From contig CAWABQ010000022.1 in NCBI GenBank assembly GCA_963780265.1, positions 8,548 through 72,547 on the forward strand: 64,000 nucleotides of DNA, written 5' to 3'. This DNA comes from Candidatus Bathyarchaeota archaeon. Its GTDB lineage: Archaea > Thermoproteota > Bathyarchaeia > 40CM-2-53-6. Position numbers and translations under genes: made by a program. The notes below the pieces were generated by a model that had not been told where the DNA came from, ran no database searches, and worked only from the letters and a program-made list of their open reading frames with translations. Shown piece by piece: positions 7,969-58,845 of this stretch (its first letter is position 1; each line of letters starts with the position of its first letter).

Positions 7969-8052
7969 GAGTCGGATAGACTAGGCCTTGCCAATAAGGC
8001 CTAAAGCGCTCTATTTCGGTTAAGCGAAAATCGAAACACGACGGTTAACAGC

Positions 8053-8286: not shown

Positions 8287-9696
8287 GTGGCAACAACTCT
8301 CATCGTTACTGAGAAACCGGACGCAGCGCTCCACGTGGCGGAAGCTCTCAGTAGCGAGCAGGGTCCGAAGAAGATTAGCGTAGGGGGCGTTCCGTTTTTC
8401 GAGGTTCAGAAGGACGGTGGGCGAATACTCGTTTGCTCAGCGCTTGGCCACCTATACGCAGTATCAGCTAAGGGGACCGAGGTACGTTCGCAATATCCCG
8501 TCTGGGATCTTGCTTGGAAGCCCAAGTATCTGGCGGAACGCGGCCAAGGAAGGCAGGAGAAATGGATCCAGTCAATTTCGATAGTATCCAAAGAGGCCGA
8601 CCGTTTCATCAATGCCTGCGATTACGATGTTGAAGGTTCGCTAATCGGGTACACGATACTCAAGTACGCTTGTGACGGGGCGGACAAGAAGGCGCAACGA
8701 ATGAAATTTTCAACCCTCACTGTCAAGGAATTACGTGACTCGTACGCTAATGTGTTACCTGAGCTTGATTTTCCGCTCGTTTTTGCGGGGATGTGTCGGC
8801 ATGAGGTCGATTGGCTTTATGGGATCAATTTGTCTCGTGCACTCACGCAGTCTGCCCTGAAAGCAGGCAACCGGTACTCAACCCTAAGCACCGGACGAGT
8901 GCAGGGGCCAACGCTGCGCTTTGTCGTCGACAGGGAACGGGAAATCGAAACCTTCGTCCCACTGCCGTACTGGGCTTTGGCAGCGCGAGTCGATATTGAC
9001 GGCAAGGTCATCGAAGCTGAGTACGAGTTCGAGCGGTTGGAGACGAAAGCGCAAGCTGAGCAGGCGATTAGGGACTGTGCAGGGAAGAAAGGGCTCATTG
9101 AGAAACTTGAATCCAAAACGTACCAATTGTCGCCCCCCACTCCATTTGACCTCTCCACACTTCAAAGCGAAGCGTACAGGCATTTTGGCTACACTCCTCG
9201 AACCGCGCTCAGCATCGCGGAACGCCTCTACTTGGACCAATTAATCTCCTACCCGCGAACCTCCAGTCAAAAGCTTCCTCCCTCGATTAACTACGAAGAG
9301 ATCCTGAAAGGACTCAGCCAGATCGGCGCTTATCGTTCTGATTCGTCAAGCCTTCTGGCTTCGGGGAGCTTGCGCCCCAACGATGGAAAGAAGGGTGATC
9401 CGGCGCATCCAGCTGTATACCCAACCGGGGCTGTTCCACGAGGTGAACTTGACTCTCGGGGACAGAAGCTCTTCGATTTGGTCGTAAGGCGCTTTCTTGC
9501 CACCTTCGGCAGAACCGCGACAAAACAGAGTGACAAGGCCACGGTCAAGGTCGGGAAACATACGTTCTTCCTACGGGGCTCAAGAACCCTGGAGAAGGGA
9601 TGGGTCGCTCTCTACGGGCCTTACGCGAAATTCCAAGAAATCATCCTGCCCCCCTTGAGGGAAGGACAGCAGGTCACAATGGCCGCGCTCTCTTAG
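8287..9696 (+). CDS. topA: DNA topoisomerase, type IA, N-terminal fragment (frameshifted)
   Basis: Toprim start TLIVTEKPDAA, acidic cluster ACDYDVEGS, and catalytic-Tyr motif LISYPRTSSQKLP. Reading continues in frame 3 near 9682-9686. Confidence 0.9.
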   Translation: MATTLIVTEKPDAALHVAEALSSEQGPKKISVGGVPFFEVQKDGGRILVCSALGHLYAVSAKGTEVRSQYPVWDLAWKPKYLAERGQGRQEKWIQSISIVSKEADRFINACDYDVEGSLIGYTILKYACDGADKKAQRMKFSTLTVKELRDSYANVLPELDFPLVFAGMCRHEVDWLYGINLSRALTQSALKAGNRYSTLSTGRVQGPTLRFVVDREREIETFVPLPYWALAARVDIDGKVIEAEYEFERLETKAQAEQAIRDCAGKKGLIEKLESKTYQLSPPTPFDLSTLQSEAYRHFGYTPRTALSIAERLYLDQLISYPRTSSQKLPPSINYEEILKGLSQIGAYRSDSSSLLASGSLRPNDGKKGDPAHPAVYPTGAVPRGELDSRGQKLFDLVVRRFLATFGRTATKQSDKATVKVGKHTFFLRGSRTLEKGWVALYGPYAKFQEIILPPLREGQQVTMAALS

Positions 9697-10400
9697 AGGA
9701 AAAGTACACTCAACCTCCGCCCCGCTACAACCCGAGCAGTCTACTGAAAGCGATGGAGGACGCGGAAATTGGAACAAAGGCGACCCGGGCCGACATAATT
9801 GAAACCCTCTACAAGCGCGGCTACGTGAAGGAGCAGCGGATGAGTGCGACCCCACTAGCATTTCGAGTGACAGAGATTCTGATGAAATATTGCCCCAAAG
9901 TCATCGACGTCACCTTCACCCGCGAACTTGAAACCAAGATGGAGCAAATCGAACATGGAAAACAAACCCGCGAAAACGTGGTCCTAGAAACTGTAGCCTA
10001 CTTGAAGCCAGTAATCGAAGACCTGAAGGCGAAGCAGCAGGAAGTGGGCAAAGAGCTCACCGCAATAATCGGTGATAGGTGGCAAGCTTCAACAACACTC
10101 TTCGTCCCATGCCCGCAGTGCGGGTCGACCCTGAAAGTTGTAAGAAACCCGAAGACGAAGAAACGTTTCATCGGCTGCGCCGGCAAATGGACGAAGAACT
10201 GCACATACGGATTACCATTACCGCAGTTCGGGGCACTAACGCTCTTGGAGAAACGATGCCCCAAATGCAGTTTTCAATTAATCCAAGCAAAGTCGAAGGG
10301 GCGGCGCCCCCTGGTTTCCTGCCCCAAATGCTTCATGGAGAGGCTAATGGCTAAGAGGGCTGCGGAAACGGTGACCATCAAGTCAACGGTAACGAAATGA
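9600..10400 (+). CDS. topA: DNA topoisomerase, type IA, C-terminal fragment with two zinc ribbons
   Basis: From about 9684 it reads ALLEEKYTQPPPRYNPSSLLKAMEDAEIGTKATRADIIETL (domain IV). This is followed by CPQCGS...CAGKWTKNC and CPKCSF...CPKC. Confidence 0.85.
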   Translation: MGRSLRALREIPRNHPAPLEGRTAGHNGRALLEEKYTQPPPRYNPSSLLKAMEDAEIGTKATRADIIETLYKRGYVKEQRMSATPLAFRVTEILMKYCPKVIDVTFTRELETKMEQIEHGKQTRENVVLETVAYLKPVIEDLKAKQQEVGKELTAIIGDRWQASTTLFVPCPQCGSTLKVVRNPKTKKRFIGCAGKWTKNCTYGLPLPQFGALTLLEKRCPKCSFQLIQAKSKGRRPLVSCPKCFMERLMAKRAAETVTIKSTVTK

Positions 10401-10404
10401 TTAC

Positions 10405-11595
10405 TCAAGAAAGAGCTTCCCTGTACACCTGAATAGTCCTTTTCGCCATTTCATCCCAGGTGAACCGCTTGCAACTTCTCCTGCCCTCTTCTGCGAGCTT
10501 CCGCCGGAGGCGCGAATCAGAGGCGACACGTTCCATTGACTCCGACAACGAGTCAGGATCAGCTGGAGGAACGAGTAAGCCGTTGCGGCCATTGCGCACG
10601 ACTTCCGGTATTCCACCGACACGAGTGGCGATTACCGGCGTCTCTGAAGCCATCGCCTCCAACACAGTCATACCGAAGGCTTCAGCCAAGGATGGTAGAA
10701 CCAGACACCTCGCCCGGCCGAGGATTTCAATAGTGCCCCTTTCAGGAAGTCTGCCGGTAAACTTGACCCTTTCATGAATACCGAGTTCCTTGGACAGGTG
10801 TATGAGCGAGGGGTCGACTCCGCCCTCCAAGCGTTCGCCCACAATCACTAACTCATATTTTCGGTGGCTGCGCGCGAATTTCGCAAATGCCTGCAGAAGG
10901 TAAGGCAATCCCTTGTGCGCCGTCTGCCGACCAATGTACAAGAAAATATTCTGGCGGTCCCGTGAAGGCTGATAATCTTCTACGTTCACTCCATTATGTA
11001 TAACATGCACCTTATCCGGATCAAGGTCATACCTAGAAACGAGTTCGTGCTTGACGCTTTGTGAGACCGCAATCACTGCATTCGAAATGATAGCCAGTTT
11101 CCTCTCAACCTTGATTAGCATTTGATTCGTCCCTGCCAGCTGCAAATCAAATACTGAAATTGGTCGTTGACGGCGCAAGGCATCCGAATATTCAGCCCAA
11201 ACGACATGGAAAGTGGAAACAATTCGCCTCCCGCCTCGCGGCAGAAAGGCATGTGGCACATGGATGTGGATTAATTCGTCATCTTTCAATCGTACGAGCC
11301 TGAGACCTGAAAGATACTGAGCGAGCAGCAAGGGGAAATTCCTTGCCCGAAGGCGCGCGAGGTTGTTGATTTCGAATTGTTCAACAGGCCGCCCATAAGT
11401 GGCGGTAACCAGCCGCAGGCTGACGTTAGGATGCAACCTTCTGCAAAGGTTCTGTACGTGTTTGCCCACGCCGCCCCAGCAAGGAGGATACTCGGATGAA
11501 AACATCCTAACGCTGAACCTTCGACTATTCCATGATCCGTCTCTCTCTGATCCCACAAGTTTCACCAGTTCAATATTCTGGAAAGCCTTATACAC
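10405..11595 (-). CDS. glycosyltransferase, GT-B fold (GT4 / glycosyl transferase group 1)
   Basis: The C-terminal signature LVLPSLAEAFGMTVLEAMASETPVIATRVGGIPEVV carries the E-x7-E motif. Confidence 0.85.
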   Translation of the reverse strand: MYKAFQNIELVKLVGSERDGSWNSRRFSVRMFSSEYPPCWGGVGKHVQNLCRRLHPNVSLRLVTATYGRPVEQFEINNLARLRARNFPLLLAQYLSGLRLVRLKDDELIHIHVPHAFLPRGGRRIVSTFHVVWAEYSDALRRQRPISVFDLQLAGTNQMLIKVERKLAIISNAVIAVSQSVKHELVSRYDLDPDKVHVIHNGVNVEDYQPSRDRQNIFLYIGRQTAHKGLPYLLQAFAKFARSHRKYELVIVGERLEGGVDPSLIHLSKELGIHERVKFTGRLPERGTIEILGRARCLVLPSLAEAFGMTVLEAMASETPVIATRVGGIPEVVRNGRNGLLVPPADPDSLSESMERVASDSRLRRKLAEEGRRSCKRFTWDEMAKRTIQVYREALS

Positions 11596-11640
11596 GATGA
11601 AGCTACGCTACGAATCGTTCCGTCACTCGGAAGTCGACTC

Positions 11641-12228
11641 ATGTCTTGGTTTCCCGCGAACCTAACCAACCTCCAGCAGTTAGTGCTGTTCTTGGTTGCG
11701 ATGGTCACGGGCCTAATTTCGATTTATGCCTTTAACATCTGGGTTCTAACCCTTCTGTCGATAAGGGGAAGGAGAAAAGTGGCGGATCCCGCAACCCTCA
11801 GTTCATGGCCAAGAGTTTCGGTTCACCTCCCACTCTTTAACGAGGAACAAGTCGCGAGGCGCCTCCTCGATGCTTGCACGAAACTCGATTACCCACGCGA
11901 TAAACTCGAGATAGTCGTAGTAGACGACTCGACCGATGGAACGACGAAGATCGCTCGGGAATTCGAGGCCAAGTTTCCAGGCCTGGTGAATGTAATCCAG
12001 CGAGAAGAACGGACCGGGTTCAAGGCCGGGGCCCTTCAGCTAGCGATGGAGAAAAGTAGCGGCGAATTCATCGCCCTTTTCGACGCGGACTATATTCCGC
12101 CTCGAGACTTCCTGAGGAAGATGATTCCCTACCTCTACGTGGACGAAAAAGTTGCTTTGCGCAATCCAGATGGAGTTACCTTGATGGACAATTCTCCTGG
12201 ATCGCCAAAGCTATCTCACTTGCAATAG
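11641..12228 (+). CDS. processive family-2 glycosyltransferase (cellulose/chitin-synthase-like), N-terminal fragment (frameshifted)
   Basis: An N-terminal TM helix, then VSVHLPLFNEE, VVVDDSTDGT and ALFDADY (the D, DxD region). The break is at the T-run 12156-12158. Confidence 0.85.
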   Translation: MSWFPANLTNLQQLVLFLVAMVTGLISIYAFNIWVLTLLSIRGRRKVADPATLSSWPRVSVHLPLFNEEQVARRLLDACTKLDYPRDKLEIVVVDDSTDGTTKIAREFEAKFPGLVNVIQREERTGFKAGALQLAMEKSSGEFIALFDADYIPPRDFLRKMIPYLYVDEKVALRNPDGVTLMDNSPGSPKLSHLQ

Positions 12229-12950
12229 ATGTCTATGCCTTTGTAGATCAGCGGGCTCGGTACGTCGGCAACCTACTTGCACATTTCAGCGGGACGTGCG
12301 GGGTTTTCAGAAGAAGTGCAATCGAGGATGCAGGCGGGTGGAGTTCGGACACGCTTGCGGAGGACCTTGACCTATCAATTAGGCTACACCTGAAAGGCTG
12401 GCGATACATTTACGTCCCTACAGTTGTCTGCCCGGGCGAGATTCCACCGAGTTTTGACAATTTGAGGCATCAACAGTTCCGTTGGGCGAAAGGCTTCTCC
12501 GAATGCTTAAGGAAATACGGTGGCGCAATCATTCGCAGCAAGCGCCTGAACTTCTTTCAGAAAATGGAAGCTTTGCTCCATTTGGGGACCTACTTCATCT
12601 GCCCATTAACGATCATCGGCATTGTTGTCGGCTTGTTGTACTACTCGATTTTTCCCCCGTCCTTTTGGTTGATGGGTTTCTGGAGGTACCAGGTCGCTCT
12701 GTTGACGTTCTTTCTCTCACTTGTAATCTATAGCGCGCCGCTAATCGCTTCAGGGGTGACGTTATCGGAGTTTTCGCAAGTCGGAATAACAAAAGCCAGA
12801 CGGTTGCTGCACCTTGGCTACTTGGGCGCACTTGTCTATGGCTTGCTTCTCAGCAATACGAGAGCCGTTATTGAGGGTCTCTTCTCGAGGACGTCGTACT
12901 TCTATCGCACACCCAAACTCGGCTCCATTCCGAGTGCAATAGAAAATTAG
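12159..12950 (+). CDS. family-2 glycosyltransferase, C-terminal fragment (the ORF track lists only 12462-12950)
   Basis: Frame 3 is open from 12159 and reads AQSRWSYLDGQF...GTCGVFRRSAIEDAGGW...AEDLDLSIRL...HQQFRWAKG (ED and QxxRW motifs). Four TM helices follow. Confidence 0.8.
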   Translation, partial: AQSRWSYLDGQFSWIAKAISLAIDVYAFVDQRARYVGNLLAHFSGTCGVFRRSAIEDAGGWSSDTLAEDLDLSIRLHLKGWRYIYVPTVVCPGEIPPSFDNLRHQQFRWAKGFSECLRKYGGAIIRSKRLNFFQKMEALLHLGTYFICPLTIIGIVVGLLYYSIFPPSFWLMGFWRYQVALLTFFLSLVIYSAPLIASGVTLSEFSQVGITKARRLLHLGYLGALVYGLLLSNTRAVIEGLFSRTSYFYRTPKLGSIPSAIEN

Positions 12951-13033
12951 GTTCGGCTAAGCAGCCCGAGTCACAAGCAGCTTTCCTAATCTTCACCGAA
13001 ATTACATGCTGAACCGTTCGCGTTGTAGGTAAT

Positions 13034-13513
13034 CTACTGCTTCTCCGCTGACGGTGCAGCCAGTGGTTTGCGTAACATATCGAGTATTCTATCGTTCTTG
13101 AGGATGTTCCTTCGGTCAATTAACAGCAGTAATGAGAGCGTCAGGAATACGAGGTAGAGAATCATGGATACGTTCAGTAGGGCGTTTGGGATGTTCGGAT
13201 ACCATCCTACAACATTGACCGAGAACACAAGCCCGTAAGCAAAGAGAGCGAACAGCAGCGGAAAGGTGAAGATGCCAAGCCAGTAAGCCCACCGCGACAG
13301 GAAATACAACGCGACGGCGGTGATTATTGATAGGCCACCGAGAACCAGTAGATGGTACGCCGTCCTGTCGAATAAGCCCCAGAAAGCAAGCATGTACACT
13401 CCGCCAACCGCGTAGAACACGAAAGGCACCCAGATGCCTGCCGTCCGCTCAGCGAATTCTTCTGTCAATCTCCGCGCCACCAAGTTTTGGGAGGCCTTAT
13501 TACGCCTGAACAT
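13034..13513 (-). CDS. membrane protein, function unknown (start moved to the internal ATG)
   Basis: The track ORF runs to 13663 and overlaps the agmatinase start. The ATG at 13513 (MFRRNKASQ...) precedes 4-5 TM helices and removes the overlap. Confidence 0.5.
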   Translation of the reverse strand: MFRRNKASQNLVARRLTEEFAERTAGIWVPFVFYAVGGVYMLAFWGLFDRTAYHLLVLGGLSIITAVALYFLSRWAYWLGIFTFPLLFALFAYGLVFSVNVVGWYPNIPNALLNVSMILYLVFLTLSLLLLIDRRNILKNDRILDMLRKPLAAPSAEKQ

Positions 13514-32985: not shown

Positions 32986-33519
32986 TCAGGTTTTCCAGAA
33001 TCCGTCGAAGGTTGAGAATGCAAGGTCACCGATCTCCGGAATGAAATGGTCTGTCACGATTATCAGAAACGCCACTGCGAACACGCCAAGAATGAGGCCT
33101 GTGGGGTAGTGGGCGAGGGACCACGGTAAGATCCCGTTGTAGAGCAGCCATATCTCCAAGGCTATCCGGCCAATGTTCGCGACGTAGACGGTTACGGCAA
33201 CAATCCCAAGAGCAGTGAGTCTTTTCTTGATGGCAACTTTAGGCATGGCAACAATAATTCCCAAGAAGACCGCAATCACTTGAACACCAGTACACATTCG
33301 CTGGATTTCGAATTGATTCAAGAAGACTTGATTGCCCTGGTACCAAACGGTTGCCTTAATTCCAATTAACTCCATCAGGATAGCTGAATGTTCCGCAATG
33401 AGTTTTTCGAAGAAGAAATAGTTCGGTAAGTAGTATAACACGAGTGCGATAACGGATGTTATTCCGAGAACCCGTCCGATTTCGAAAATCTTCTGCCGCT
33501 GGAAGTGCTCCGATCCCAT
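32986..33519 (-). CDS. exosortase/archaeosortase-family protein (short form) with a Cys/Arg/His triad
   Basis: 177 aa with about 5 TM helices. Motifs are EIQRMC(76)TGVQV, VANIGR(118)IALE and LAH(137)YPTG. It is adjacent to a PEF-CTERM gene. Confidence 0.7.
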   Translation of the reverse strand: MGSEHFQRQKIFEIGRVLGITSVIALVLYYLPNYFFFEKLIAEHSAILMELIGIKATVWYQGNQVFLNQFEIQRMCTGVQVIAVFLGIIVAMPKVAIKKRLTALGIVAVTVYVANIGRIALEIWLLYNGILPWSLAHYPTGLILGVFAVAFLIIVTDHFIPEIGDLAFSTFDGFWKT

Positions 33520-45643: not shown

Positions 45644-47182
45644 ATGGAAGTTCCAGGCTTGGGCGTAGGTAACGCCAACGGAGCCTGGTTCGGCATCGAA
45701 ACCATCGGTGAGGCCAATGCGGGCCACGCTGATGTCGGTGGATACACAGGTTACGCTTCAGGACCCCCAGGTGCAACTGGAGCAGACCCGCACGTACAGT
45801 CACCACTGGTTGGAGGCTTCGGCTTTACAACCGCGGTGATCAACAACTGGCACCACGTAAGCTACTTCAAACCAACCGCACTAGACTCCGGCCAATACTG
45901 CATTGCAGGATGGACCTACGGCTACGTACAGGACAAGCAATTCTGCGTCTACGCTAACAAAGGTGAAATTGCAGACATCAAAGTGAACTTCCTGATCGGC
46001 GTGAACATAACGTTGGATATACTCTTCAAGAAAGAGCATATCATAACGCCAACGGCGTTCAACATGTCTGCAAGAGTCCGAGTCTTCGATGACTCAGGCG
46101 TCCTTGTTGGTGAATGGATGACCAGCGAAGGCACATACGTTACAGGCAATGGCCAGGCGACGTCAGCCACATGTGGCGACGACATCTTTGGACATACAGG
46201 TCCAGGATCCGGATGCCTATACCCATGGGACGGAGGACTAGAGGGCGCTACCCCGATCGGCTTCAACTACCTACCGGGCGGCGTTACCAACCTCCACGTA
46301 CTCATCGCAGGCTTAGCACCAGACGCGACGGACACCACCACGGGAACGTGGGGTGACCCCGTCTTCGCGAACTCGGCTATCAACTGCGACTTCGAAGTCG
46401 ATTGCACAGGCCCAGGATTAGGCTACCCGTCACCCTGGTTTGTCAACAATGGCATATCGGGTGCACCGGACTATACGGGAAGCTGGACTGTTGAAACCGA
46501 CTTCGTCAATTGGTACGCTAACAACACAAGCTTCACAACGGAACCGGCAGGAGTTGTGATAAACCACAGCGTTCCACAATACTACCCACCAGTGGTCGGC
46601 TTACTGCAAGGTGAGTCATACCACATAATACCCGGCACCACAGCCACGACAGGCGTAAGCTTGACAGAGGACGGTGCCGAAAACAGCGCATTCCTTGGAC
46701 TGGCCGCACCAGGCATGGAGCGTAACCATCTTGGTCCGTACCAGCAACAAGGAGTCTGGCAACTATCCAACGCTCACCTAAGCGGTGAAGTCAGCGGAGT
46801 ATTCGAACTTGACCTCGCAGGCTACGTGTCAGGCTCAGCGTGGGCCTTCACATGGAGCAACGAGTTCAGGCCACTCAGCTGGGCAACCGTAACCATCGCT
46901 AGCGCAGACGGCAAATGGACCTTCACACAATACACCCAAGACGGAATCTACGAAGGGTACCTACCGCCTGGATCGTACACTATGACGATCTCGGCGCCAG
47001 GAATTACTTCGCAGACCCAGAGCTTCGTCGTAACAGCAGGCCAATCCTCAGGTGTAGGAACCGGCCAACAACTCTACATGGAACAGAGCAACATTCCAGT
47101 CCCAGAATTCAGCGGAATCGCAATCATGGCATTCTCAGCCCTAGCAGCATCACTATACCTACTACGACGCAGACGCCGCTAG
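45644..47182 (+). CDS. giant surface protein, fragment 6 of 6, with PEF-CTERM
   Basis: CarboxypepD_reg-like unit DGIYEGYLPPGSYTMTISAPGITSQTQSFVV. The C-terminus is SNIPVPEFSGIAIMAFSALAASLYLLRRRRR (PEF at 47102-47110). Confidence 0.75.
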   Translation: MEVPGLGVGNANGAWFGIETIGEANAGHADVGGYTGYASGPPGATGADPHVQSPLVGGFGFTTAVINNWHHVSYFKPTALDSGQYCIAGWTYGYVQDKQFCVYANKGEIADIKVNFLIGVNITLDILFKKEHIITPTAFNMSARVRVFDDSGVLVGEWMTSEGTYVTGNGQATSATCGDDIFGHTGPGSGCLYPWDGGLEGATPIGFNYLPGGVTNLHVLIAGLAPDATDTTTGTWGDPVFANSAINCDFEVDCTGPGLGYPSPWFVNNGISGAPDYTGSWTVETDFVNWYANNTSFTTEPAGVVINHSVPQYYPPVVGLLQGESYHIIPGTTATTGVSLTEDGAENSAFLGLAAPGMERNHLGPYQQQGVWQLSNAHLSGEVSGVFELDLAGYVSGSAWAFTWSNEFRPLSWATVTIASADGKWTFTQYTQDGIYEGYLPPGSYTMTISAPGITSQTQSFVVTAGQSSGVGTGQQLYMEQSNIPVPEFSGIAIMAFSALAASLYLLRRRRR

Positions 47183-49229: not shown

Positions 49230-49979
49230 TTGGACAGAGTTACGACAGGCATTAAAGGCCTCGATGAAGTATTGAACGGCGGCCTACCGAAGGATAGAAC
49301 GATCCTAGTTGTGGGAAGCCCAGGGTCAGGAAAGACAACTTTCGCGATACAGTTCCTTGTTGGTGGGGCGAAGGCTGGGGAACCAGGCCTCTATGTCTCC
49401 TTAGATGAGAAGCCTGAACGCATCAAAGCTAACCTCTCATCATTCGGTTGGAACCTGGATTCCCTCGAAGATGCCGGGAAGCTCACATTCATAGACGCAA
49501 CGCAACTCAAACGCCCGGGGCAACGAATCAACCAGCCACCCATTGACTCTGAAAACCCCGTGAGCCTCACCCTCCCAGAACTAACCTTAGGGTCCCTCGT
49601 CCGAACTATCAGGCGCGTTGCAGCAGAGGAAGGCACGCAAAGAATCGTAGTCGACCCCATAACCTCACTAATGCTCCGCTATCCAGAGGAGGCCAAACGA
49701 AGGCGCGCGCTTCTACTCTTCTTCGACGCACTCGAGTCAACCGGATGCTCCTGCATCGTAACCAGCGAACTCCGCACATCAATGCTTGCTCGGCGATTTC
49801 AAGTCGAAGAATTTCTATCACAAGGCGTCGTACTACTTCATACAATGGTACATGAGGGAAACGTTATTCGAGGGTTACAGGTTGAGAAGATGCGAGGCAT
49901 AAGCCACGACGCACAACTCCGCCCGTACCAAATTGGCCCGTCAGGCGTCGAAGTCTTTCCAAAGGACAGAGTCTTCTAG
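49230..49979 (+). CDS. KaiC/RadA-like single-domain ATPase (COG0467-type)
   Basis: GIKGLDEVLNGGLPKDRTILVVGSPGSGKTTFAIQFL (Walker A), RIVVDPITS (Walker B), LQVEKMRG. Confidence 0.8.
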   Translation: MDRVTTGIKGLDEVLNGGLPKDRTILVVGSPGSGKTTFAIQFLVGGAKAGEPGLYVSLDEKPERIKANLSSFGWNLDSLEDAGKLTFIDATQLKRPGQRINQPPIDSENPVSLTLPELTLGSLVRTIRRVAAEEGTQRIVVDPITSLMLRYPEEAKRRRALLLFFDALESTGCSCIVTSELRTSMLARRFQVEEFLSQGVVLLHTMVHEGNVIRGLQVEKMRGISHDAQLRPYQIGPSGVEVFPKDRVF

Positions 49980-50066: not shown

Positions 50067-50819
50067 ATGACTAAACGTGAGGTAATCAGAAAACATGAAA
50101 GTTCAATACTGAAAGGAATCGCTGTCATTTCTCTCCTAGTTCTAATTGTGCTCGGCTCAACCCTCGTAATGGTTCGTTTTCTCCGAACAAATCCCCGCAC
50201 CGATATTGGGGCAACCGGATGGCAACAAACGCCGGAGGTTCGAATAATCATGGATTCAACGGCAGATTGGGCACGCATGATGTTCAACGACCTGTACGGA
50301 ACCGACTCCAACGGCATCAGAATTGTTGACTTTCACTCCCACGGATGGTTGTTGGGTAACGATAGCAACTACCGAATAGACGCCGCCCGCGGCCTCACTT
50401 TCCTCGACATAATCTACAACTCAACAGTCATGAAGACGGGTGACATTATCGGGTTCTTCAAAGGCAATAATGATTTCAGGCACACTAGGATGTTCGCGGA
50501 CGTAATCCTTGAAGTGAACTTCGACATGACGAGGGTGTCCGTGTACCTAATGCTGGCGGGCGCGGGAACGACAACGTTTCAGTTCATAAACAAGGAAACC
50601 GGAGTAGTATTATGGGAAGACACCGAAACGGGGCGTAGCGTCACCCAGTATCTACCGAGGTACATATTCCCTCAAGTGTTCTACGCAAAGGAAAAGATCG
50701 ATACCTACCTAGTCTTAGCACTGCTCGCGGGTACAATTCTTACCATCATAGTTCTTAACCCAATGTACCTCCCCAGACCGGCCGAACGCAGATCTAAGAA
50801 AGAATCTGGTGGTCTCTAA
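50067..50819 (+). CDS. bitopic membrane protein, function unknown
   Basis: An N-terminal TM helix (GIAVISLLVLIVLGSTLVMV), an extracytoplasmic domain, and a C-terminal TM helix plus RRSKK. Confidence 0.5.
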   Translation: MTKREVIRKHESSILKGIAVISLLVLIVLGSTLVMVRFLRTNPRTDIGATGWQQTPEVRIIMDSTADWARMMFNDLYGTDSNGIRIVDFHSHGWLLGNDSNYRIDAARGLTFLDIIYNSTVMKTGDIIGFFKGNNDFRHTRMFADVILEVNFDMTRVSVYLMLAGAGTTTFQFINKETGVVLWEDTETGRSVTQYLPRYIFPQVFYAKEKIDTYLVLALLAGTILTIIVLNPMYLPRPAERRSKKESGGL

Positions 50820-50909: not shown

Positions 50910-51941
50910 TTGATCTCCGTCATCATTACGCTCCCACGCTTTGGTGCGGGCATTCCAATGAGCGTCGATACGACCAGCCATCTCTACAAGATTCTATTCC
51001 TGCAAAACTGGTGGAAACAGGGTGTCTTCCCATTCTGGAGCCCCGACTGGTACGCGGGGTCCCCTGCACTCTTGCTGTACCCGCCCTTGAGTTACTATAT
51101 CACGGCCGGATTTTCCATGCTAGGCGTGGATCCACTCCTATGCTACAAGTTAGTTGACGCAGTTTTCTATTTGCTCGCCCCAGTCGCGGTCTACTTTCTC
51201 GCAAAGGAGTTTGGCTTGAGCAAAGGCCAAAGTGCCCTTGGAGCCTTGCTCTTCAGCGTAGTTCCTGAGGTTATTGAGAACCACATATTTTTCGATAGGT
51301 TCCCAACGGTAATGGCAATCCCAATTTTCTGCTCTTTCATCATAATGTTTCACCGGGCTCTCAAGGAGCAGGCCGGTCTTACCTACTCACTGGGCTCGAT
51401 TCTAACAATGTCGGCTCTACTCCTTACACACCATCTTTCGGCACTAATTGCCGGAATAGTCGCCGTCCTTATGGTTTTGCTTACGATTGGAAAACAAGGC
51501 CTGAGTAGGCCTCTCATGAAACTCATTCTTGTCGGGGTAGGAACAGCTGGGGTTACAGCCTTTTGGCTTGCTCCCTTCCTAACGTCATTCGGCTTATTCA
51601 CAGGGAATCAATTCTATAATAGAAACGTGACATTTCCGTTCCTGAGGTTCACCTATTTCGGCTTCGACGTCACCTCCTACCTTCTCGGAATCGCACAATT
51701 CATTCTCGCTGCCATCGGCGTACAGTCAATCGTCGGCCGCAAATTCGGGAAACGAATTCCCATCAACGCCGTCATATTCTTCGCGGCTCTGCTCTGCGGC
51801 ATGGCATTGTTCCAAACAGGAGAGGTGGCGAACAACCTGATTCTGATGGGCTTGGGGGAAGCGGTTGTAGCTGGCTCTTTCACAGTATTCCTTGGGCAGT
51901 TGATTGTTTTCAGTCACATTCGACGGATTTTGTCGCTGTAA
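50910..51941 (+). CDS. YfhO-like GT-C-fold membrane glycosyltransferase candidate, N-terminal fragment (frameshifted)
   Basis: VDTTSHLYKILFLQNWWKQGVFPFWSPDWYAGSP, then about 8 TM helices. The break is at the T-runs around 51928-51957. Confidence 0.55.
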   Translation: MISVIITLPRFGAGIPMSVDTTSHLYKILFLQNWWKQGVFPFWSPDWYAGSPALLLYPPLSYYITAGFSMLGVDPLLCYKLVDAVFYLLAPVAVYFLAKEFGLSKGQSALGALLFSVVPEVIENHIFFDRFPTVMAIPIFCSFIIMFHRALKEQAGLTYSLGSILTMSALLLTHHLSALIAGIVAVLMVLLTIGKQGLSRPLMKLILVGVGTAGVTAFWLAPFLTSFGLFTGNQFYNRNVTFPFLRFTYFGFDVTSYLLGIAQFILAAIGVQSIVGRKFGKRIPINAVIFFAALLCGMALFQTGEVANNLILMGLGEAVVAGSFTVFLGQLIVFSHIRRILSL

Positions 51942-51955
51942 ATGGGTCCATTTTT

Positions 51956-53017
51956 TTGGTTCTGTGGTTCATTCTCTTCCTTTGGCTCAGCTTGGGATAC
52001 TACGCGCTTCCTATTCTCCAGCTTCCATACATTAGCCCAATTTGGGTAAAGACCATGGACGTCTACAGAATCTGGCTATATCTCGCTCTTCCCATGAGCA
52101 TACTCGCAGCCTGGGGACTTCAAAGATCCATCACAAAGCTCCATTCCTGGAAACCGCTAGCGGTCATTTTTCTGGTCGCTCTCGTAACTGCCCCAATCGG
52201 CGCGGGCGTTGTGCTGACAACGAATTATGCCTTCAACAATAACGTTAACCTCGTACTACCGTACTCAGCCGCGAACGCGGAAATTCCCCCGGCAATAATA
52301 CACTATTTCCAAAACGACCCATCGCCGGGAAGAATTTTAGCCTTCAACGTGCCATTCTGGATTTATGTTCTGCCTAACTACGTCGACAAGTCAATCGTTG
52401 ACGGGTGGTATCCGCAAACTAAACTAGTCACCCAACTCGTAATCATAAATGACTACCGACTAGACGACTTGGAAAACGCCTCTAACGACACAGCACGCTT
52501 GGACACTTGGAGAAGCCTCCTTTCCGAAGCCAGCCAACTTGACGTAACCTGGGTTGTGATTGGTGATAACGGGACACTAGCGAACACGATCATGAATAAC
52601 GCACCTTTCAACGAACAGTTAACCGTCCCATACGGAAAAGTGGACCTGAAGGTGTACAAAGCATCACAGGTGCCGTCGCTCATTGATTCGGGCCAAGAGC
52701 TTTCAGAGAGCGTAGCTCGTCCAAACCCGGACACAATCATCCTAACCCTCAAACCCATTCCCAGCAGCAACACGCTAATCGTGAAAGAGGCTTACTTCCC
52801 GACCTGGGCTGCTACAGCAGACGGGCAAGCCTTGCTCGTGAAACGCGAGGCCAGCACGGGGTATATTATGCTAACAATCCCAGCATACACTCGACAAGTC
52901 ACAATTTACCAGAAACCGGGCACCAACATTTGGAACGCGCTTTCCCTCGTTAGTCTCTTAGCTTGTGTCGCTCTAATGGCGGCGTTGCTCCTGAAAAGAG
53001 GACGATGGAGGACCTAG
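51956..53017 (+). CDS. YfhO-like membrane glycosyltransferase candidate, C-terminal fragment
   Basis: The periplasmic-type domain ends EAYFPTWAATADGQALLVKRE...YTRQVTIYQKPG, followed by a final TM helix. This is the YfhO-like C-terminal pattern as I recall it. Confidence 0.55.
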   Translation: MVLWFILFLWLSLGYYALPILQLPYISPIWVKTMDVYRIWLYLALPMSILAAWGLQRSITKLHSWKPLAVIFLVALVTAPIGAGVVLTTNYAFNNNVNLVLPYSAANAEIPPAIIHYFQNDPSPGRILAFNVPFWIYVLPNYVDKSIVDGWYPQTKLVTQLVIINDYRLDDLENASNDTARLDTWRSLLSEASQLDVTWVVIGDNGTLANTIMNNAPFNEQLTVPYGKVDLKVYKASQVPSLIDSGQELSESVARPNPDTIILTLKPIPSSNTLIVKEAYFPTWAATADGQALLVKREASTGYIMLTIPAYTRQVTIYQKPGTNIWNALSLVSLLACVALMAALLLKRGRWRT

Positions 53018-53168: not shown

Positions 53169-54248
53169 TTGACTTACGTGACAGCGTTTGTTCTCCTCAT
53201 CCTCGCAACATTAGACACCAATGCAATTCTCAGACTACGCAACGTCGCACTTGTATCATTGATTCTGGCTACTGTGGTAAGCTGGTATGTCATAACCCAA
53301 GTGGAACATCCAGCGGCATACCAAACAGACGCGCTCGCCTTCGCACATTACTCGGCCATCCTCCTCGCCAAGGGAGTGAATCCATACACTCAGGACCTAC
53401 AATCCGCCCTTTCCATGTTTTCAGTAGATCCACAGTTCGTCACCCTCACGCCCAACGGGGGGCTGGTTAGCACACTCAACTACCCCGCGCTGCAGGTGAT
53501 TCTCTTGCTTCCCGTAGTCTGGTCTGGGCTACACGACGCAAGAATCGTCGTTTACATTTTCGAGGTAGCCTCGATACTCGTAGTGTACCTTTGGGCGCCT
53601 AGAGAAATTCGGCCAATAGCCCTGGTCCCCCTGTTCGCCGGCTCTGACTTGGCCGTAAACTTCAGCGCCGGGGCGGTAGCGGACTTCCTCTGGGTTTTTC
53701 CACTAGTCCTGATGGTTGTCTACCTTGATCGCCCTCGAATCGCCGGAATCATGTTCGGCTTGGCGAGTGCGGTAAAGCAGACACCTTGGATATTGGCTCC
53801 CTTTCTCCTGGTCTGGTTTCTGCAAAGCAACCAAACTCTCCAGTTCAAGGAACGGCTGAAGCGAACAGGAGCTTTCGCCACCTTCGCGCTGACATCATTT
53901 CTAATTCCCAACCTGTGGTTCATGCTAGTTGACCTCGGTGCCTGGTATTCGGGAGTGGTTACCCCAGCGTTCGGCAACCTGGTGGTGTTGAGCCAAGGCC
54001 TATCTCTCATCACATTAGCAGCGGGCGTCCCATTACCCCCCGCCTTCTACCTGACTGCAACGCTTTCAGTAGCGGGAGTACTTCTCGTGTGTTACTTCAT
54101 TTACTTCGAAAAGCTTGCCTTAACTGTCTGGGCCTTCCCAGCGATCGTTCTCTGGTTCTCCTACCGTGGTTTACAGAACTACTTCATCTTCTGGACGCCA
54201 TTGCTCGTGATGTCCGCCATCATGCTCTATAAGAAGGCGCAACCATGA
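53169..54248 (+). CDS. polytopic membrane protein, possible DUF2029/GT87-like GT-C glycosyltransferase
   Basis: About 10 TM helices. QTDALAFAHYSAILLAKGVNPY...YPALQ resembles DUF2029. The call is weak and from memory. Confidence 0.4.
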   Translation: MTYVTAFVLLILATLDTNAILRLRNVALVSLILATVVSWYVITQVEHPAAYQTDALAFAHYSAILLAKGVNPYTQDLQSALSMFSVDPQFVTLTPNGGLVSTLNYPALQVILLLPVVWSGLHDARIVVYIFEVASILVVYLWAPREIRPIALVPLFAGSDLAVNFSAGAVADFLWVFPLVLMVVYLDRPRIAGIMFGLASAVKQTPWILAPFLLVWFLQSNQTLQFKERLKRTGAFATFALTSFLIPNLWFMLVDLGAWYSGVVTPAFGNLVVLSQGLSLITLAAGVPLPPAFYLTATLSVAGVLLVCYFIYFEKLALTVWAFPAIVLWFSYRGLQNYFIFWTPLLVMSAIMLYKKAQP

Positions 54249-55108
54249 AAGCGACCAGGCCAGCGGCCGCAGTACTGTCGATATCGATTTGTATTCTGGT
54301 CATTAGCCTAAGTTTCACCTCATATTACGGTCAAATATACCAACCATCGCCACTGCTCAACACGAACATGAAATTCTGGACCCTTGACCCAGCCAACAAC
54401 ATAACCAAACCATACCTTTGGCAAGTCGATATAATCAAAGGGGTTTCTGATAACGTCAGCATTTATCAATTCAATGTGGAAAATCGCTCATCCATTGCGC
54501 TAAGAGTGAATCGTAGCAACCAAAACTACACTTCGGTCTGGACGACTCTGCACCTCAGACAGGATTTGAATGGTCAAGGTCTTGATGCTATCTTCCGATC
54601 TACGATTTCGCTCTGGGTCTTTCCAACATTCACTTATTGGTACGATAACTCATCCTATAACCCTGAGAATGCGTTCGGCATCGAAATTAACGACGGAACG
54701 AATTTGATTTGGTTCATATTCGCCGATGAACCCAGCCAAGTCTTCCAATTGCCTCATCACAGGATTGTATTGACACAGACCCCGTTGAACATTTGGTCAC
54801 AAAGGGAAATTGATATCGCTAAACAATATGATGAAGCGGGCTGGAAGAAACCTGAGTCTTTATCCTTCATCCTTCTACTGGGGACGACAAAAGATCACCC
54901 AGGTGACTGGGTTGGCTATGTCTCAGGACTAAGCGTGGATGTAAGCCCATTACAGACTGAAAGCCTATCTGCCTCACAGAGGCTAACCGTCCTGGCCATA
55001 GATGCAGTGGTTATACTAGCTGTTGCAGCAGCTGCAATCAGCTTGCGTATGCGAAAGGGAGCAAGGAGATTTAGTAGGGCTAAGAGAAAGACTGTAGTCA
55101 AAAGGTGA
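54245..55108 (+). CDS. bitopic surface protein, function unknown
   Basis: An N-terminal anchor, a ~220-aa ectodomain with several N-x-S/T sequons, then a C-terminal TM helix plus RMRKGARRFSRAKRK. Its start overlaps the upstream stop (ATGA). Confidence 0.5.
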   Translation: MKATRPAAAVLSISICILVISLSFTSYYGQIYQPSPLLNTNMKFWTLDPANNITKPYLWQVDIIKGVSDNVSIYQFNVENRSSIALRVNRSNQNYTSVWTTLHLRQDLNGQGLDAIFRSTISLWVFPTFTYWYDNSSYNPENAFGIEINDGTNLIWFIFADEPSQVFQLPHHRIVLTQTPLNIWSQREIDIAKQYDEAGWKKPESLSFILLLGTTKDHPGDWVGYVSGLSVDVSPLQTESLSASQRLTVLAIDAVVILAVAAAAISLRMRKGARRFSRAKRKTVVKR

Positions 55109-55138: not shown

Positions 55139-55726
55139 TTGAAGCGGACAGTGCCCTCGACTTGGCCCGAAATTCTGTCACAAACAAAGGCTAACGTCTT
55201 TTCGATTCTTTCAGTAGCCTTCGGCGTGGCAGCGCTAGCAATGATACTTGGGGCAACTCTCGCCCCTACGGGACAGATCAGTGGAGAGAGTCTCGTCCTG
55301 ATTGAGGTCCAGGTTCTTCCGGGGTTCTACATGAAGCCCATTACGTTCTTCACGTTCTCGCTCTTCCTGTCCTTTGCCTTCGGCCTCTACACACCCCAAA
55401 CCAGGCGGAGGTTCCTAGGAGCAAGGCCAAGTGTGCTTAGGACGGTGTACATCGGGGCCTGGCTCGTCGCGATGGGCAGCGGTTTCGAGATAGTGTATCA
55501 AATAGTGATTTGGTCAGCAGCCCTCGCTGTGCAGGGCCTGGCGAACCCCGATATCATAGTGAATCCCTTCCCTGTCTCTGTAAACCCAACTCCAATAAAC
55601 GTGGTCTTCGCCTCAAAGATGGTTGTCGTCATATTCTTCATGGCAATCTTCCTCATAGACTACATCCATCGAATTGACAGAATACTGCACGAGAGAGAGT
55701 TGGTAGAAACACTTCTCGGCAAATAA
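55139..55726 (+). CDS. membrane protein, function unknown
   Basis: 195 aa with about 5 TM helices. Confidence 0.45.
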   Translation: MKRTVPSTWPEILSQTKANVFSILSVAFGVAALAMILGATLAPTGQISGESLVLIEVQVLPGFYMKPITFFTFSLFLSFAFGLYTPQTRRRFLGARPSVLRTVYIGAWLVAMGSGFEIVYQIVIWSAALAVQGLANPDIIVNPFPVSVNPTPINVVFASKMVVVIFFMAIFLIDYIHRIDRILHERELVETLLGK

Positions 55727-55780: not shown

Positions 55781-56899
55781 ATGCCTACATTAACAGGACG
55801 GCTAAAGAAATTCTGCGTAAACGTGTATCATGAGTTCCGCACTCGTGACGCTATTCCACTTCTACTAATTTTGTTCCCAGTAGTTTTCCTAATAGTGATC
55901 GACCCTGACTCTTTCTCATTAGTGTGGTTCTGGGGTCGCCAAGTCGGCAGGGCCGGTTTCGCGTTTCTCTTCTTCCTGGTAGCTTGGGATTGGCATGACT
56001 CAAGACGAATGATGAAAGCCACGCGGGCAAGGTGGCGATATGTGCTAGCCGGTCTGGTCCTAATTGTGATCCTCGTGTACTATTGGGAACGCGTAGTCAA
56101 CGTTGGTTTAACAGACTACCTCCGTGTATACGTCACTAGTCAATTGGGCGTTTCACAAAACTCGCCGCTCAGTTTTCTGCTGGCAATGGATTACTTTGTG
56201 TACGGCGCCTATTCCGTAGCGGTAACCGCCCTCCTGTACTCACCGAAAGTAATCCTCCGAATGGCCACCCCGGTAATCTACGTTGTCGGCAGCGGAATAC
56301 TTGACATGATGGACGCCTTCTTTCCTGAGGACTCCCTGGCCTTCCTACAGATCTGGGTCTACCTGATTTGGAATGTCGTAGTCTTCTTACTCGGTTTCAT
56401 GGGATACAATACAACCGTAAACCCACTTGTCAGCAAGATACCAATACCTAGCTTGCTGTTGCAAGGGAACCGTTTGTACCTTTGGGGTTTCAAGGGACCC
56501 ATGACCCTTGCCATATACTGGCCCTCATCCGGAGTCGTGAGCATGATTGTCTACAGCTTGGTAATTCTAGTTCTGATGGTGAAACTGGAGGCGCCAAGGA
56601 GGCGCAAGCTTGTCTACGCTGTGGTCGGGGCTGCAGGAACTTATTTCGTCAACGTTATACGCATCACATCGATCGTGCTCTACGTTACCTACATCAGCCT
56701 CGACGTGGAAGCTTTTCATCAATCCATCGGCGAGGTACTGTTCATCTGCTGGATTTTCATTTACCTACTGCTCGTCCTTCATGTAGAGGACAGTTACCAC
56801 GGAAACAAGTCCAACCAATCAGGGGTCAGAACCAAGAAACCGGGCTTGCCACAAACCCGTACACGTCACACCAAGAAAGCTAGAGGAACGAGAAGCTGA
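55781..56899 (+). CDS. exosortase/archaeosortase-family homolog with Ser replacing the catalytic Cys
   Basis: Polytopic. AIYWPS(249)SGVVSM, FVNVIR(294)ITS and AFH(313)QSIG align with C76, R118 and H137 of the 32986 paralog with matching spacing. The Ser codon TCA lies at 56525-56527. Confidence 0.6.
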   Translation: MPTLTGRLKKFCVNVYHEFRTRDAIPLLLILFPVVFLIVIDPDSFSLVWFWGRQVGRAGFAFLFFLVAWDWHDSRRMMKATRARWRYVLAGLVLIVILVYYWERVVNVGLTDYLRVYVTSQLGVSQNSPLSFLLAMDYFVYGAYSVAVTALLYSPKVILRMATPVIYVVGSGILDMMDAFFPEDSLAFLQIWVYLIWNVVVFLLGFMGYNTTVNPLVSKIPIPSLLLQGNRLYLWGFKGPMTLAIYWPSSGVVSMIVYSLVILVLMVKLEAPRRRKLVYAVVGAAGTYFVNVIRITSIVLYVTYISLDVEAFHQSIGEVLFICWIFIYLLLVLHVEDSYHGNKSNQSGVRTKKPGLPQTRTRHTKKARGTRS

Positions 56900-57189
56900 A
56901 ACCGTAGCGGACCTGAGCGCCGCGGATCTGTAACAATAAGTGGTTCTTAGAAAGTTTCTAAAGACAGGTCGTCGAAGGCAGGAGCCACTCATGGTTTTTC
57001 TTGGACAGAGAGGTAATTGTTCTCGCTAATTGAGGTTAGAGTGAAGACGATTTCAGTCTGCGTCTCCTGAAGGCTGTATAACTCAATGGAACCGGACTTT
57101 CGAGGTTCTCTTAGAGAGTCTACATATCCATGAGCGTTTCCAAGACATTTAAACTACCAACCCGCCAGACAGCCTCAGGCTGAGTTTCA

Positions 57190-58845
57190 TTGACCGCGGT
57201 AACGGAGCTAATGGAAATCGCACTTGGCAGACTGGACGAGTTAGCTCCGTCAACTCAAAGGGTAGCTATATGCGAATACGGCCCCGCCGTATACGCAAAA
57301 CCAGGTTCGTACAAGGGCCAAGACGTTTTGGTTGTATGCGACAGTTACGCTAACGGCCTGCGGGCCCATCTGAGGGTTATTGACGGACACGAAATCAGGT
57401 TCCTAATTACAGATCGCAGCTTAATGGAGTCAGACATCGCAAGAGGAACGCTCGGTGATTTTCTCACCGAGAAATTCCTCTACCCCAACCGCGCATTAAC
57501 CAACAGCGAATATCTGGAAAACATGAATATCCAAGCGAAGACGCGTGTGGTGAAAGAAGAAACGCGAGACTTAGTGGTAGAATACGGAGAAATGTGCCGC
57601 GGTTTGGTTGCAAAGCCAGAGTTCTTCGGAATCTCGCGAATGCGAAAGCAGGCGCGTGTCTTCCTGCCAAGCATGGCAGATTATCTGAGGCTGTTGGAAT
57701 CTTCGGTTCGCCAACAGAACATCTCGATTCTTCACGATTCCTTCAAAGCGGCAATAGTAACGATGAAGGGCGATGTGGTCGAGCTTGACGGCGACTATGC
57801 TACCTTCCAAGACAACGCCATCGACAAATGGCTTAAGGACAGAGCGTCGGAACAGGCAGTCAACATACTCCGGCAGAGCCAGAGGGCCTTTTACTCCTAC
57901 CTTACGAAGGGACGTTCGATTTACCTTAACCTCGACCTGCTTGCACGTGAACTCAGCGAGCCCTTGAGGGCAGGGTTGGACCCCGCACTGGCGGGGAGGA
58001 AGCCAGAGAACCCGAAAGACTACCTATACCTCAGAACATCAGAAGGGTTCGCCACGTTCAATGAGACGGCATCGTTTGAAGACATTGTCGCAAAACTGCG
58101 ACCCGGCCGTCCCATAACAATTTCTCCTTTGGCCGGGGTGCTGAACGAAGTTGTCCTCGTGACGGCGGGAAATGAGCAGTTCGTTGCAAAGAAGTTCACG
58201 GACTGGCATGGCTTCAAATGGTTCACCTTAAACCTGGTTTCGTTCGGCAGCAAAGTTTTCGCAGTCTCGGGTAAGACCAGGATGACCAACGAGTATGGAA
58301 TTAATCGTTACCTAGCCAAGAAAGGGTTGAAGGTTCCCCACATGATCCATGTGAACCTGAAGCAGCGAATCTTGGTCGAGAAGTATGTTGCAGGTAATGG
58401 ATTGAACGATTTCGCAACGAAAGCAATCAAGCAGAGGACGCTGACCGAGTCGCAGTCTCGAATAGCCGCAACTCTGGGTGAGACTCTAGCCCGGATACAC
58501 AGTGTTGGAGTATCAGTGGGAGACGCCAAACCAGAGAACTTTGTAGCAACGGAGAGTGGAATTTTCACGGTGGACCTTGAGCAAGCAGATAAGCGAAGAG
58601 ACTTTGCGTGGGACATAGCCGAGTTGCTCTTCTACACGGGACATTATAGCACCAGCCCTACACCGACTGGCGGGCTTAGCGAGATGGTTGAAGCCTTCAC
58701 GGCAGGCTATTTGCGCAAAGGTCACGCAACAGAATTGAAACAGGCAGCTGGGGTGAGATACGCAAAGGCATTTTCTTTTTGGACGCCGGCGCCTATTATC
58801 CTTGAGATTTCAAAGATACTTAATGAGGCCAGCCGAACGGGTTGA
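57190..58845 (+). CDS. fusion protein: N-terminal nucleotidyltransferase-like (Tam41/Mmp37-like?) domain plus C-terminal atypical (Bud32/RIO-like) protein kinase domain
   Basis: The N-half has VAICEYGPAVYA...DVLVVCD and IRFLITDRSLMESDIARGTLGDFLTEKFLYPNRAL. The C-half has FVAKKF (VAxK Lys), LVEKYVAG (hinge) and SVGDAKPENF...TVDLEQA (catalytic loop and DFG-like motif). Confidence 0.5.
   Translation: MTAVTELMEIALGRLDELAPSTQRVAICEYGPAVYAKPGSYKGQDVLVVCDSYANGLRAHLRVIDGHEIRFLITDRSLMESDIARGTLGDFLTEKFLYPNRALTNSEYLENMNIQAKTRVVKEETRDLVVEYGEMCRGLVAKPEFFGISRMRKQARVFLPSMADYLRLLESSVRQQNISILHDSFKAAIVTMKGDVVELDGDYATFQDNAIDKWLKDRASEQAVNILRQSQRAFYSYLTKGRSIYLNLDLLARELSEPLRAGLDPALAGRKPENPKDYLYLRTSEGFATFNETASFEDIVAKLRPGRPITISPLAGVLNEVVLVTAGNEQFVAKKFTDWHGFKWFTLNLVSFGSKVFAVSGKTRMTNEYGINRYLAKKGLKVPHMIHVNLKQRILVEKYVAGNGLNDFATKAIKQRTLTESQSRIAATLGETLARIHSVGVSVGDAKPENFVATESGIFTVDLEQADKRRDFAWDIAELLFYTGHYSTSPTPTGGLSEMVEAFTAGYLRKGHATELKQAAGVRYAKAFSFWTPAPIILEISKILNEASRTG

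Follow-up and report, generated by a model that had tools for sequence, protein, structure and literature searches.

What is a sortase in which serine stands where the catalytic cysteine of its family is expected: an enzyme with a different nucleophile, or a relative that has lost its activity? This question is raised by a gene at 55781..56899 (plus strand) of a 64,000-nucleotide stretch of DNA from a Candidatus Bathyarchaeota archaeon (GenBank assembly GCA_963780265.1, contig CAWABQ010000022.1, positions 8,548 to 72,547; hereafter, the window), which encodes a thaumarchaeosortase-like, predicted polytopic membrane protein of 372 amino acids. Members of the exosortase/archaeosortase superfamily share a conserved Cys, Arg, and His, as PMC4343526 relays from Haft (2012). 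An earlier note, made by reading the window's sequence, had aligned the protein by eye with a small Cys-type archaeosortase paralog encoded elsewhere in the window (32986..33519, minus strand; 177 amino acids) and had proposed that Ser249 takes the place of the Cys, leaving two options, an enzyme with a Ser nucleophile and a paralog without activity. Here, we show that Ser249 does occupy the nucleophile column and that the substitution is shared with a large branch of the superfamily, and we weigh the evidence that the protein is, as seems probable, an active enzyme.

Identification of a Ser-type archaeosortase

Profile searches showed that the 372-residue protein matches the exosortase/archaeosortase signature TIGR04178 at 46.9 bits (E=2.5e-12), above the cut-off of 23, and that it marginally passes PF09721 (26.0 bits vs. 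a cut-off of 25.7). Its top NCBIfam family was TIGR04297, "thaumarchaeosortase" (118 bits, E=5.6e-34, below the cut-off of 250), with a match that extended over nearly the full length of both (residues 27-347 on positions 4-301 of the 307-position model). The ArtC model, TIGR03762, gave a weak secondary match to the protein and its relatives (24-37 bits; cut-off 100), and the ArtA model, TIGR04125, gave no match to the Ser-type protein at E<=1. A total of 120 homologues were found at 50-96% identity, many of the close ones named "thaumarchaeosortase" by the Joint Genome Institute (JGI). The AlphaFold2 (AF2) model of the protein (pLDDT 83, pTM 0.78) was largely helical, with a three-stranded sheet. 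The protein is a member of the exosortase/archaeosortase superfamily with Ser in place of the active-site Cys. On the plus strand, the nucleophile column of the motif Y-W-P-S-S-G is filled by Ser249 (codon TCA, 56525-56527), which is followed by Ser250 (TCC, 56528-56530); the conserved Arg of the Cys/Arg/His set is Arg294 (CGC, 56660-56662), and the conserved His, in the motif F-H-x-x-x-G-E, is His313 (CAT, 56717-56719). Cysteines occur at positions 12 and 323 only, and these two residues, like the two serine codons, are as the earlier note had read them.

A 133-residue open reading frame (ORF; 56482-56883, plus strand) lies in another frame wholly within the sortase gene, and the same overlap is seen in a related locus (L002, 8702-9064). 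This nested ORF most likely results from base composition and is no gene.

A pairwise BLASTP comparison of the two window paralogs did not align the nucleophile segment significantly (E=20), and profile methods were therefore needed. When alignments of the Ser family (A1, 121 sequences) and the Cys-paralog family (A2, 49 sequences) were compared by hhalign, IYWPS249SG fell on IQRMC76TG and NVIR294I on NIGR118I (E=1.7e-4, probability 49%). In the register of TIGR04178, residues 244-335 of the Ser protein lie on model positions 2-94 and residues 70-158 of the 177-residue paralog on positions 1-93, with Ser249 and Cys76 both at approximately model position 7. The A1 profile was also searched against 1.84 billion representatives, and the best 150 were re-aligned to it. 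In the resulting hidden Markov model (HMM) alignment of 150 diverse representatives, the nucleophile column contained 81 Cys, 56 Ser, and 1 Asn, while the surrounding W-P-x-x-G was otherwise invariant, giving the motif W-P-[C/S]-x-G; Arg was present in 150/150 and His in 144/146. The AF2 models of the two paralogs (pLDDT 88 for the smaller) had an identical local layout around the nucleophile, Arg, and His, consisting of three short beta-strands, the nucleophile at a helix N-cap, a basic loop, and then a long helix with the Arg 21 residues into it, followed by a short loop and then the last helix, with the His at its start. The by-eye alignment was thus borne out by hhalign, by the TIGR04178 register, and by the column of 150 representatives: the profile methods set the same residue in the nucleophile column, and the spacings that had been quoted from nucleophile to Arg and from Arg to His (45 and 19 residues in the Ser protein, 42 and 19 in the paralog) are exact.

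Conservation of Ser249, Arg294, and His313

Ser249, Ser250, and Gly251 were invariant in 121/121 homologues, which come from many independent assemblies, and Arg294 and His313 were each present in 119/119. At the Ser249 codon, the 13 orthologous loci between them used TCA, TCC, TCT, and TCG with the amino acid unchanged, and Ser249 is under purifying selection. Since position 250 is mostly Ala in the wider family, Ser249 is the conserved serine of the pair. Among the Ser-type representatives, Arg was kept in all and His in every row covering the column, apart from two irregular rows, P0363, with an insertion at this point, and P0365. No alternative conserved Cys was found in the query clade; positions 12 and 323 are variable, and position 145, which is Cys in 75% of the clade and Ser, Phe, or Val in the rest, is Ser in the window protein.

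These data also bear on whether the serine could be an artefact, either because bases 56525-56527 were wrongly sequenced or assembled or because the true nucleophile lies at another place and was missed in the alignment. The window does have at least one probable frameshift at another site, near 51940, where 1 base is deleted. However, Ser-Ser-Gly is present in all 121 independent homologues with synonymous codon variation, three independent alignment approaches give the same column, and the Ser family has no other conserved Cys. Sequencing error, assembly error, and misalignment are effectively ruled out on these grounds, and the probability left to any of them is negligible. The earlier note had argued that an indel or homopolymer error would not account for the serine and had proposed a survey of orthologs for Ser versus Cys; the argument holds, given the four TCN codons in 13 loci, and the survey returned Ser in 121/121.

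Serine and cysteine across the superfamily

Three of the retrieved proteins, P0270 (527 bits), P0258 (363 bits), and P0262 (270 bits), exceeded the TIGR04297 cut-off, and all three carry FWPSAGVHS. Ser is the native residue of the curated thaumarchaeosortase family, and the suggestion in the earlier note that Ser variants may be known from family surveys is in substance right. The description of TIGR04297 itself reportedly mentions the Ser. A published discussion of the Cys/Ser substitution was not found in the full-text literature, a scope that does not take in Haft et al. (2012). PEFG-CTERM is mentioned in four studies on the proteomics, transcriptomics, and ecology of ammonia-oxidising archaea, in one of which, PMC6593220, it serves as an annotation label only. 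Ser is a clade-wide trait of a large, already curated branch and no peculiarity of the window paralog; being native to that branch, it loses most of its surprise. The conserved active-site Cys is missing from the window protein, and 56 of the 138 representatives likewise have Ser. Since these include members of the curated sub-family, Cys is not universal in the superfamily.

Genome-resolved relatives of the window protein were found at 19 loci, 17 of which are labelled Bathyarchaeia or Bathyarchaeota, the exceptions being "Candidatus Acidoferrum sp." (L005) and "archaeon RBG_16_50_20" (L008; not classified further). One of these relatives is an 83%-identical copy on a 2.36-Mb contig. The window accordingly comes from a soil or peat member of the Bathyarchaeia. 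Since the protein scores below the TIGR04297 cut-off and its relatives are Bathyarchaeia, sequence comparison places it in a Bathyarchaeia-specific sister clade of the thaumarchaeosortases and not in the equivalog family itself. The Ser trait belongs to a branch that had already been curated; the Bathyarchaeial sister clade is what is added here. 

Three observations on individual relatives may be recorded. The contig of L005 (DASQZS010000130.1) has the Bathyarchaeial gene order and is probably a mis-binned archaeal contig. A close homologue, P0056, is labelled "Candidatus Dormibacteraeota bacterium." Finally, one Bathyarchaeia metagenome-assembled genome (MFD04492.bin.2.141) contains two Ser-type copies (L006 and L011), which are 63% and 55% identical to the window protein, and the second of these is without any conserved neighbours.

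The nucleophile column was taken out of the alignment of 84 full-length representatives, and a rough neighbor-joining (NJ) tree was built from the rest. On this tree, Ser forms were interleaved with Cys forms, with a Fitch minimum of 8 changes from a Cys root, a count that is uncertain and indicative only because the tree is without support values. The nearest relative of the Ser-type protein P0242 is the Cys-type P0243 (49% identity), and that of the Ser-type P0276 is the Cys-type P0312 (46% identity). The distant Bathyarchaeia loci L013-L018 (~30% identical to the window protein) have the Cys codons TGT or TGC. Interleaving of this kind is the pattern expected if the two nucleophiles are interchangeable. 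In 54/54 Ser-type representatives, the residue at -3 from the nucleophile (position 246 in the window protein) was Phe or Tyr, the only consistent correlate of Ser; Cys types had Ala, Gly, Asn, or Tyr at this position, and many of them thus likewise have an aromatic residue. An aromatic residue at -3 may be a permissive background for the Cys-to-Ser swap. One representative, P0280, has Asn in the nucleophile column (FWPNVGVQS) with Arg and His kept, and it may be a truly inactive member.

Genomic context of the Ser-type gene

The Ser-type gene closes a block of genes on one strand, and synteny of this block was seen in 10-11 Bathyarchaeia loci. Its first gene codes for a KaiC-like single-domain ATPase (49230..49979, plus strand; PF06745, 203.6 bits), which is syntenic in 8 loci. 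It is followed, all on the plus strand, by genes for a 250-residue membrane protein of no family (50067-50819), a GT-C-like membrane protein with Pfam matches to PTPS_related/PMT_2 (50910-53017), which is split by a frameshift, a weakly GT87-like membrane protein (Pfam; 53169-54248), a 287-residue conserved protein (54245..55108), and a 195-residue conserved membrane protein (55139..55726), which is immediately upstream of the sortase and is 69-87% identical in 11 loci. Between the ATPase and the sortase, the window has six membrane-protein ORFs, which represent five genes, the frameshift having split one. Neither the 195-residue nor the 287-residue protein matched a Pfam or NCBIfam family. 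The latter has an N-terminal signal anchor, a C-terminal transmembrane (TM) segment, and a long basic tail, and an alignment of 12 orthologs revealed a conserved P-x-Q-x-[EQ]-[ST]-L-S before the C-terminal TM segment. It is speculative, but this protein might be a dedicated substrate with a new type of sorting signal, or it might be a simple bitopic membrane protein.

In a further locus, L021, a KaiC-like ATPase (7295-8032; 60.6% identical) is encoded immediately upstream of a Ser-type sortase that is 32% identical to the window protein, and the two genes overlap. Since the ATPase adjoins so distant a Ser-type sortase, the KaiC-sortase linkage is older than the block. Considering that the Ser-type gene ends a block with a KaiC-like ATPase and GT-C-type membrane proteins, the role of the sortase is most likely in building a glycoprotein cell surface.

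Two local differences from the syntenic relatives were seen. The GT-C-like gene, a single 722-residue ORF in L002, is represented in the window by two ORFs (50910-51941 and 51956-53017), with a 1-base deletion relative to L001 and L002 and a junction near 51936-51956 (GTCGC-TGTAAATGG vs. GTCGCGCGTGAATGG). Either the assembly is wrong here or the gene is a real pseudogene. On the other side of the sortase, most syntenic relatives have ~2.4-6 kb of extra DNA between the sortase and a Bud32-like kinase gene. In L002, this region (9155-13105, ~4 kb) encodes a 433-residue membrane protein, a GT2 protein, an NAD-dependent epimerase, and a second GT2 protein. The window has only a 291-bp gap at this position (56899-57190), and post-sortase glycosylation genes of the L002 type are absent from it.

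The small Cys-type paralog and candidate substrates

The 177-residue paralog has Cys76 (TGT, 33292-33294), Arg118, and His137, all three of which were invariant in its 49 homologues. It scored 40.1 bits with TIGR04178, above the cut-off, and 43.5 and 43.2 bits with the heimdallarchaeosortase and ArtH models, respectively, both below cut-off. Ser-type and small Cys-type genes also occur together on contigs of 2.36 Mb and 698 kb (P0006/P0135 and P0007/P0136). Directly upstream of the small sortase is the gene for a 155-residue secreted CarboxypepD_reg protein (PF13620; 33711..34178, minus strand), which ends in a PEF-CTERM-like tail (VPVPEFPTG, a TM segment, and KHRKRKR) that scored 18.7 bits with the PEF-CTERM model TIGR03024 (cut-off 23). 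A second candidate substrate is a 512-residue CarboxypepD_reg protein (45644..47182, plus strand), whose PEF-CTERM-like tail (IPVPEFSG, a TM segment, and RRRRR) scored 16.7 bits with the same model when the tail alone was used; an ortholog with the same tail is encoded upstream of the cluster in L009. On the best of the candidate tails, the PEFG-CTERM model (TIGR04296) scored 6.2 bits (E=8.6), and no tail of the PGF type was seen when C-termini were scanned across the window.

In the window and in L022-L024, the small Cys sortase is always preceded by a protein of ~155 residues with CarboxypepD_reg/PEGA domains and a PEF-CTERM-like end, and the two look like a dedicated substrate-sortase gene pair. 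Since this pair is conserved, the PEF-CTERM-like proteins of the window may belong to the Cys paralog. Beside the Ser-type gene, only two PEF-type tails were found in the 19 related loci, at distances of 5-7 kb, and there was no convincing linkage.

Is the Ser-type protein an active enzyme?

Since Arg and His are retained, the motif is unchanged, and Cys and Ser are exchanged between close relatives, an active enzyme is favoured, and we consider it probable that the gene product is an active Ser-nucleophile sortase of the Ser-bearing exosortase/archaeosortase branch. Of the two options left by the earlier note, the comparative evidence thus points to the Ser-nucleophile enzyme and disfavours the inactive paralog. 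The AF2 model suggests how such an enzyme might be arranged. A basic loop at residues 268-276 (KLEAPRRRK), the last four residues of which are in the first turn of helix 273-304, and a basic C-terminal tail containing 10 Lys or Arg flank the last two helices. By the positive-inside rule, applied to the multi-helical AF2 model, Ser249 and His313 would be located at the ends of the last three helices that are opposite this loop and tail. Both residues would presumably lie at the same, outer helix ends.

On this arrangement, the last three helices of the membrane-embedded enzyme would carry Ser249, Arg294, and His313 at their outer ends, and the enzyme could recognize a C-terminal tripartite signal (a short motif, a TM helix, and a basic tail) on secreted surface proteins. 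His313 would activate Ser249 for attack on the scissile peptide bond, the TM helix and basic tail would be released, and the acyl-enzyme so formed would be an oxy-ester, as opposed to the thio-ester proposed for ArtA. Arg294 might stabilize the transition state, and the acyl-enzyme could be resolved either by the amine of a lipid head group, as proposed for ArtA, or by water.

Several points weigh against an active Ser enzyme. No biochemically characterised Ser-type exosortase or archaeosortase was found in the literature, and hydroxyl groups are weaker nucleophiles than thiols. When the Ser clades were compared for an acidic residue that might make up a Ser-His-Asp triad, none was found to co-vary with Ser in all of them, and Ser, Arg, and His might also have been conserved for a non-catalytic role, e.g., in binding. 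The tree that underlies the count of Cys/Ser switches is, as noted, a rough one. No structure has been solved for the family: the family profile had no sequence match in the PDB at E<=10, and a Foldseek search of the PDB with the AF2 model likewise gave no solved homologue (best E=0.9). Finally, the sole clear PEF-type signals in the window fall below the curated cut-off, and one of the two genes is conserved beside the Cys paralog and not beside the Ser-type enzyme.

One alternative is a catalytically inactive pseudo-enzyme that would have kept the fold and the binding groove and would act as a regulator, receptor, or scaffold, with the Cys-type paralog or the neighbouring glycosylation machinery as a possible partner. 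The experimentally supported nucleophile of the family is Cys (Cys173 of ArtA; PMC9263693, PMC7157517), which is missing here; the same genome has a Cys-type paralog with its own adjacent PEF-CTERM substrate gene; and the Ser-type gene could be linked to no substrate. However, pseudo-enzymes usually lose other catalytic residues as well, whereas both Arg and His are kept here in the whole query clade (119/119) and in essentially all Ser-type representatives, with W-P-x-x-G intact. Moreover, Cys is always replaced by Ser, the one residue chemically able to stand in for it; Ala, Gly, and Thr never occur in the column, and Asn occurs in 1/138. Ser also arose or reverted repeatedly among close Cys relatives, and NCBIfam pairs its curated thaumarchaeosortase family with a model of the cognate signal, PEFG-CTERM (TIGR04296). 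To our knowledge, the thaumarchaeosortase is the sole sortase homologue in ammonia-oxidising archaea. Loss of activity is, in our judgement, an unlikely explanation of the serine.

An active protein might, on the other hand, be a plain serine endopeptidase, which would remove the anchor by hydrolysis with no transpeptidation or lipid attachment. General enzymology would allow this, as aminolysis proceeds less readily from an oxy-ester acyl-enzyme than from a thio-ester, and rhombosortase, a serine intramembrane protease, is reported to process GlyGly-CTERM in an analogous system (PMC3237569, PMC6219818). Against this, serine acyl-enzymes elsewhere do transpeptidate, the DD-transpeptidases being the textbook example, and the frequent exchange of Cys and Ser in close relatives suggests that the outcome of the reaction is the same with either residue; the sequence has nothing to tell hydrolysis from transfer. 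We consider a purely hydrolytic enzyme improbable. The observations can also be drawn together into one more detailed account, in which Cys and Ser would be interchangeable, with many swaps in enzymes of the Bathyarchaeia and Thaumarchaeota types on an aromatic -3 background, and in which the Bathyarchaeial clade would be active and oxy-ester-forming, would be coupled to the KaiC-like ATPase and the glycosylation cluster, and would act on a dedicated, undescribed signal on the 287-residue neighbour and not on PEF-CTERM. As a whole, this account is conceivable but rather doubtful.

Implications

The description of archaeosortases and exosortases as cysteine transpeptidases (MEROPS C106) is based on ArtA. 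A large natural branch, which includes the sortase of the globally abundant ammonia-oxidising archaea and a clade of soil and peat Bathyarchaeia, has Ser at the corresponding position. If the Ser enzymes are active, the chemistry of the family would extend beyond thio-esters and the choice of inhibitors and probes would differ; the repeated exchange of Cys and Ser would then offer a clean natural experiment on how the nucleophile of a membrane enzyme is chosen. For annotation, Ser in the nucleophile column is no sign of a pseudogene or of an error. The Bathyarchaeial clade falls under the current TIGR04297 cut-off and hence receives a generic name only.

Comparison with known systems

ArtA of Haloferax volcanii (MEROPS C106) is the only experimentally studied archaeosortase. 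Cys173, Arg214, and Arg253 are critical for its activity (PMC9263693), with Cys173 as the active-site residue and a proposed thio-ester that is resolved by archaetidylethanolamine (PMC7157517). Its active site is on the outer face, and it processes the tripartite C-terminal signals of surface glycoproteins (PMC9263693, PMC4343526, PMC7157517). The window protein, a member of this superfamily too, resembles ArtA in its predicted polytopic membrane architecture and in having a conserved nucleophile and Arg. The two differ in that ArtA has Cys173 and acts on PGF-CTERM signals, whereas the window protein has Ser, and the weak match to the ArtA model in the window (32.7 bits) belongs to the small Cys paralog and not to the Ser protein.

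ArtC (TIGR03762), whose signal is PEF-CTERM (TIGR03024), is a Cys enzyme of Euryarchaeota. Two tails in the window match PEF-CTERM best, but all of the window's scores with these models are below the curated cut-offs. Rhombosortase, with its GlyGly-CTERM substrates, is a functional analogue, being reported as a membrane serine enzyme that removes a C-terminal tripartite signal (PMC3237569, PMC6219818). Unlike the window protein, it has a rhomboid fold with a Ser/His dyad inside the bilayer, and it is without homology to PF09721.

The remaining comparison is with the thaumarchaeosortases (TIGR04297) of ammonia-oxidising Thaumarchaeota/Nitrososphaeria. The window protein scores 118 bits against 270-527 for true members, to which it is ~30-33% identical, and its motif reads SSG where theirs reads SAG. 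Its genome-resolved relatives are Bathyarchaeia and not Thaumarchaeota, two of the 19 loci being otherwise labelled; the KaiC-like/GT-C block was not seen beside the one true member examined (L020), and the PEFG-CTERM model did not match the candidate tails of the window. Nevertheless, the window protein and the thaumarchaeosortases are alike in length class and architecture, and they share the Ser of the F/Y-W-P-S-x-G motif together with the same Arg and His.

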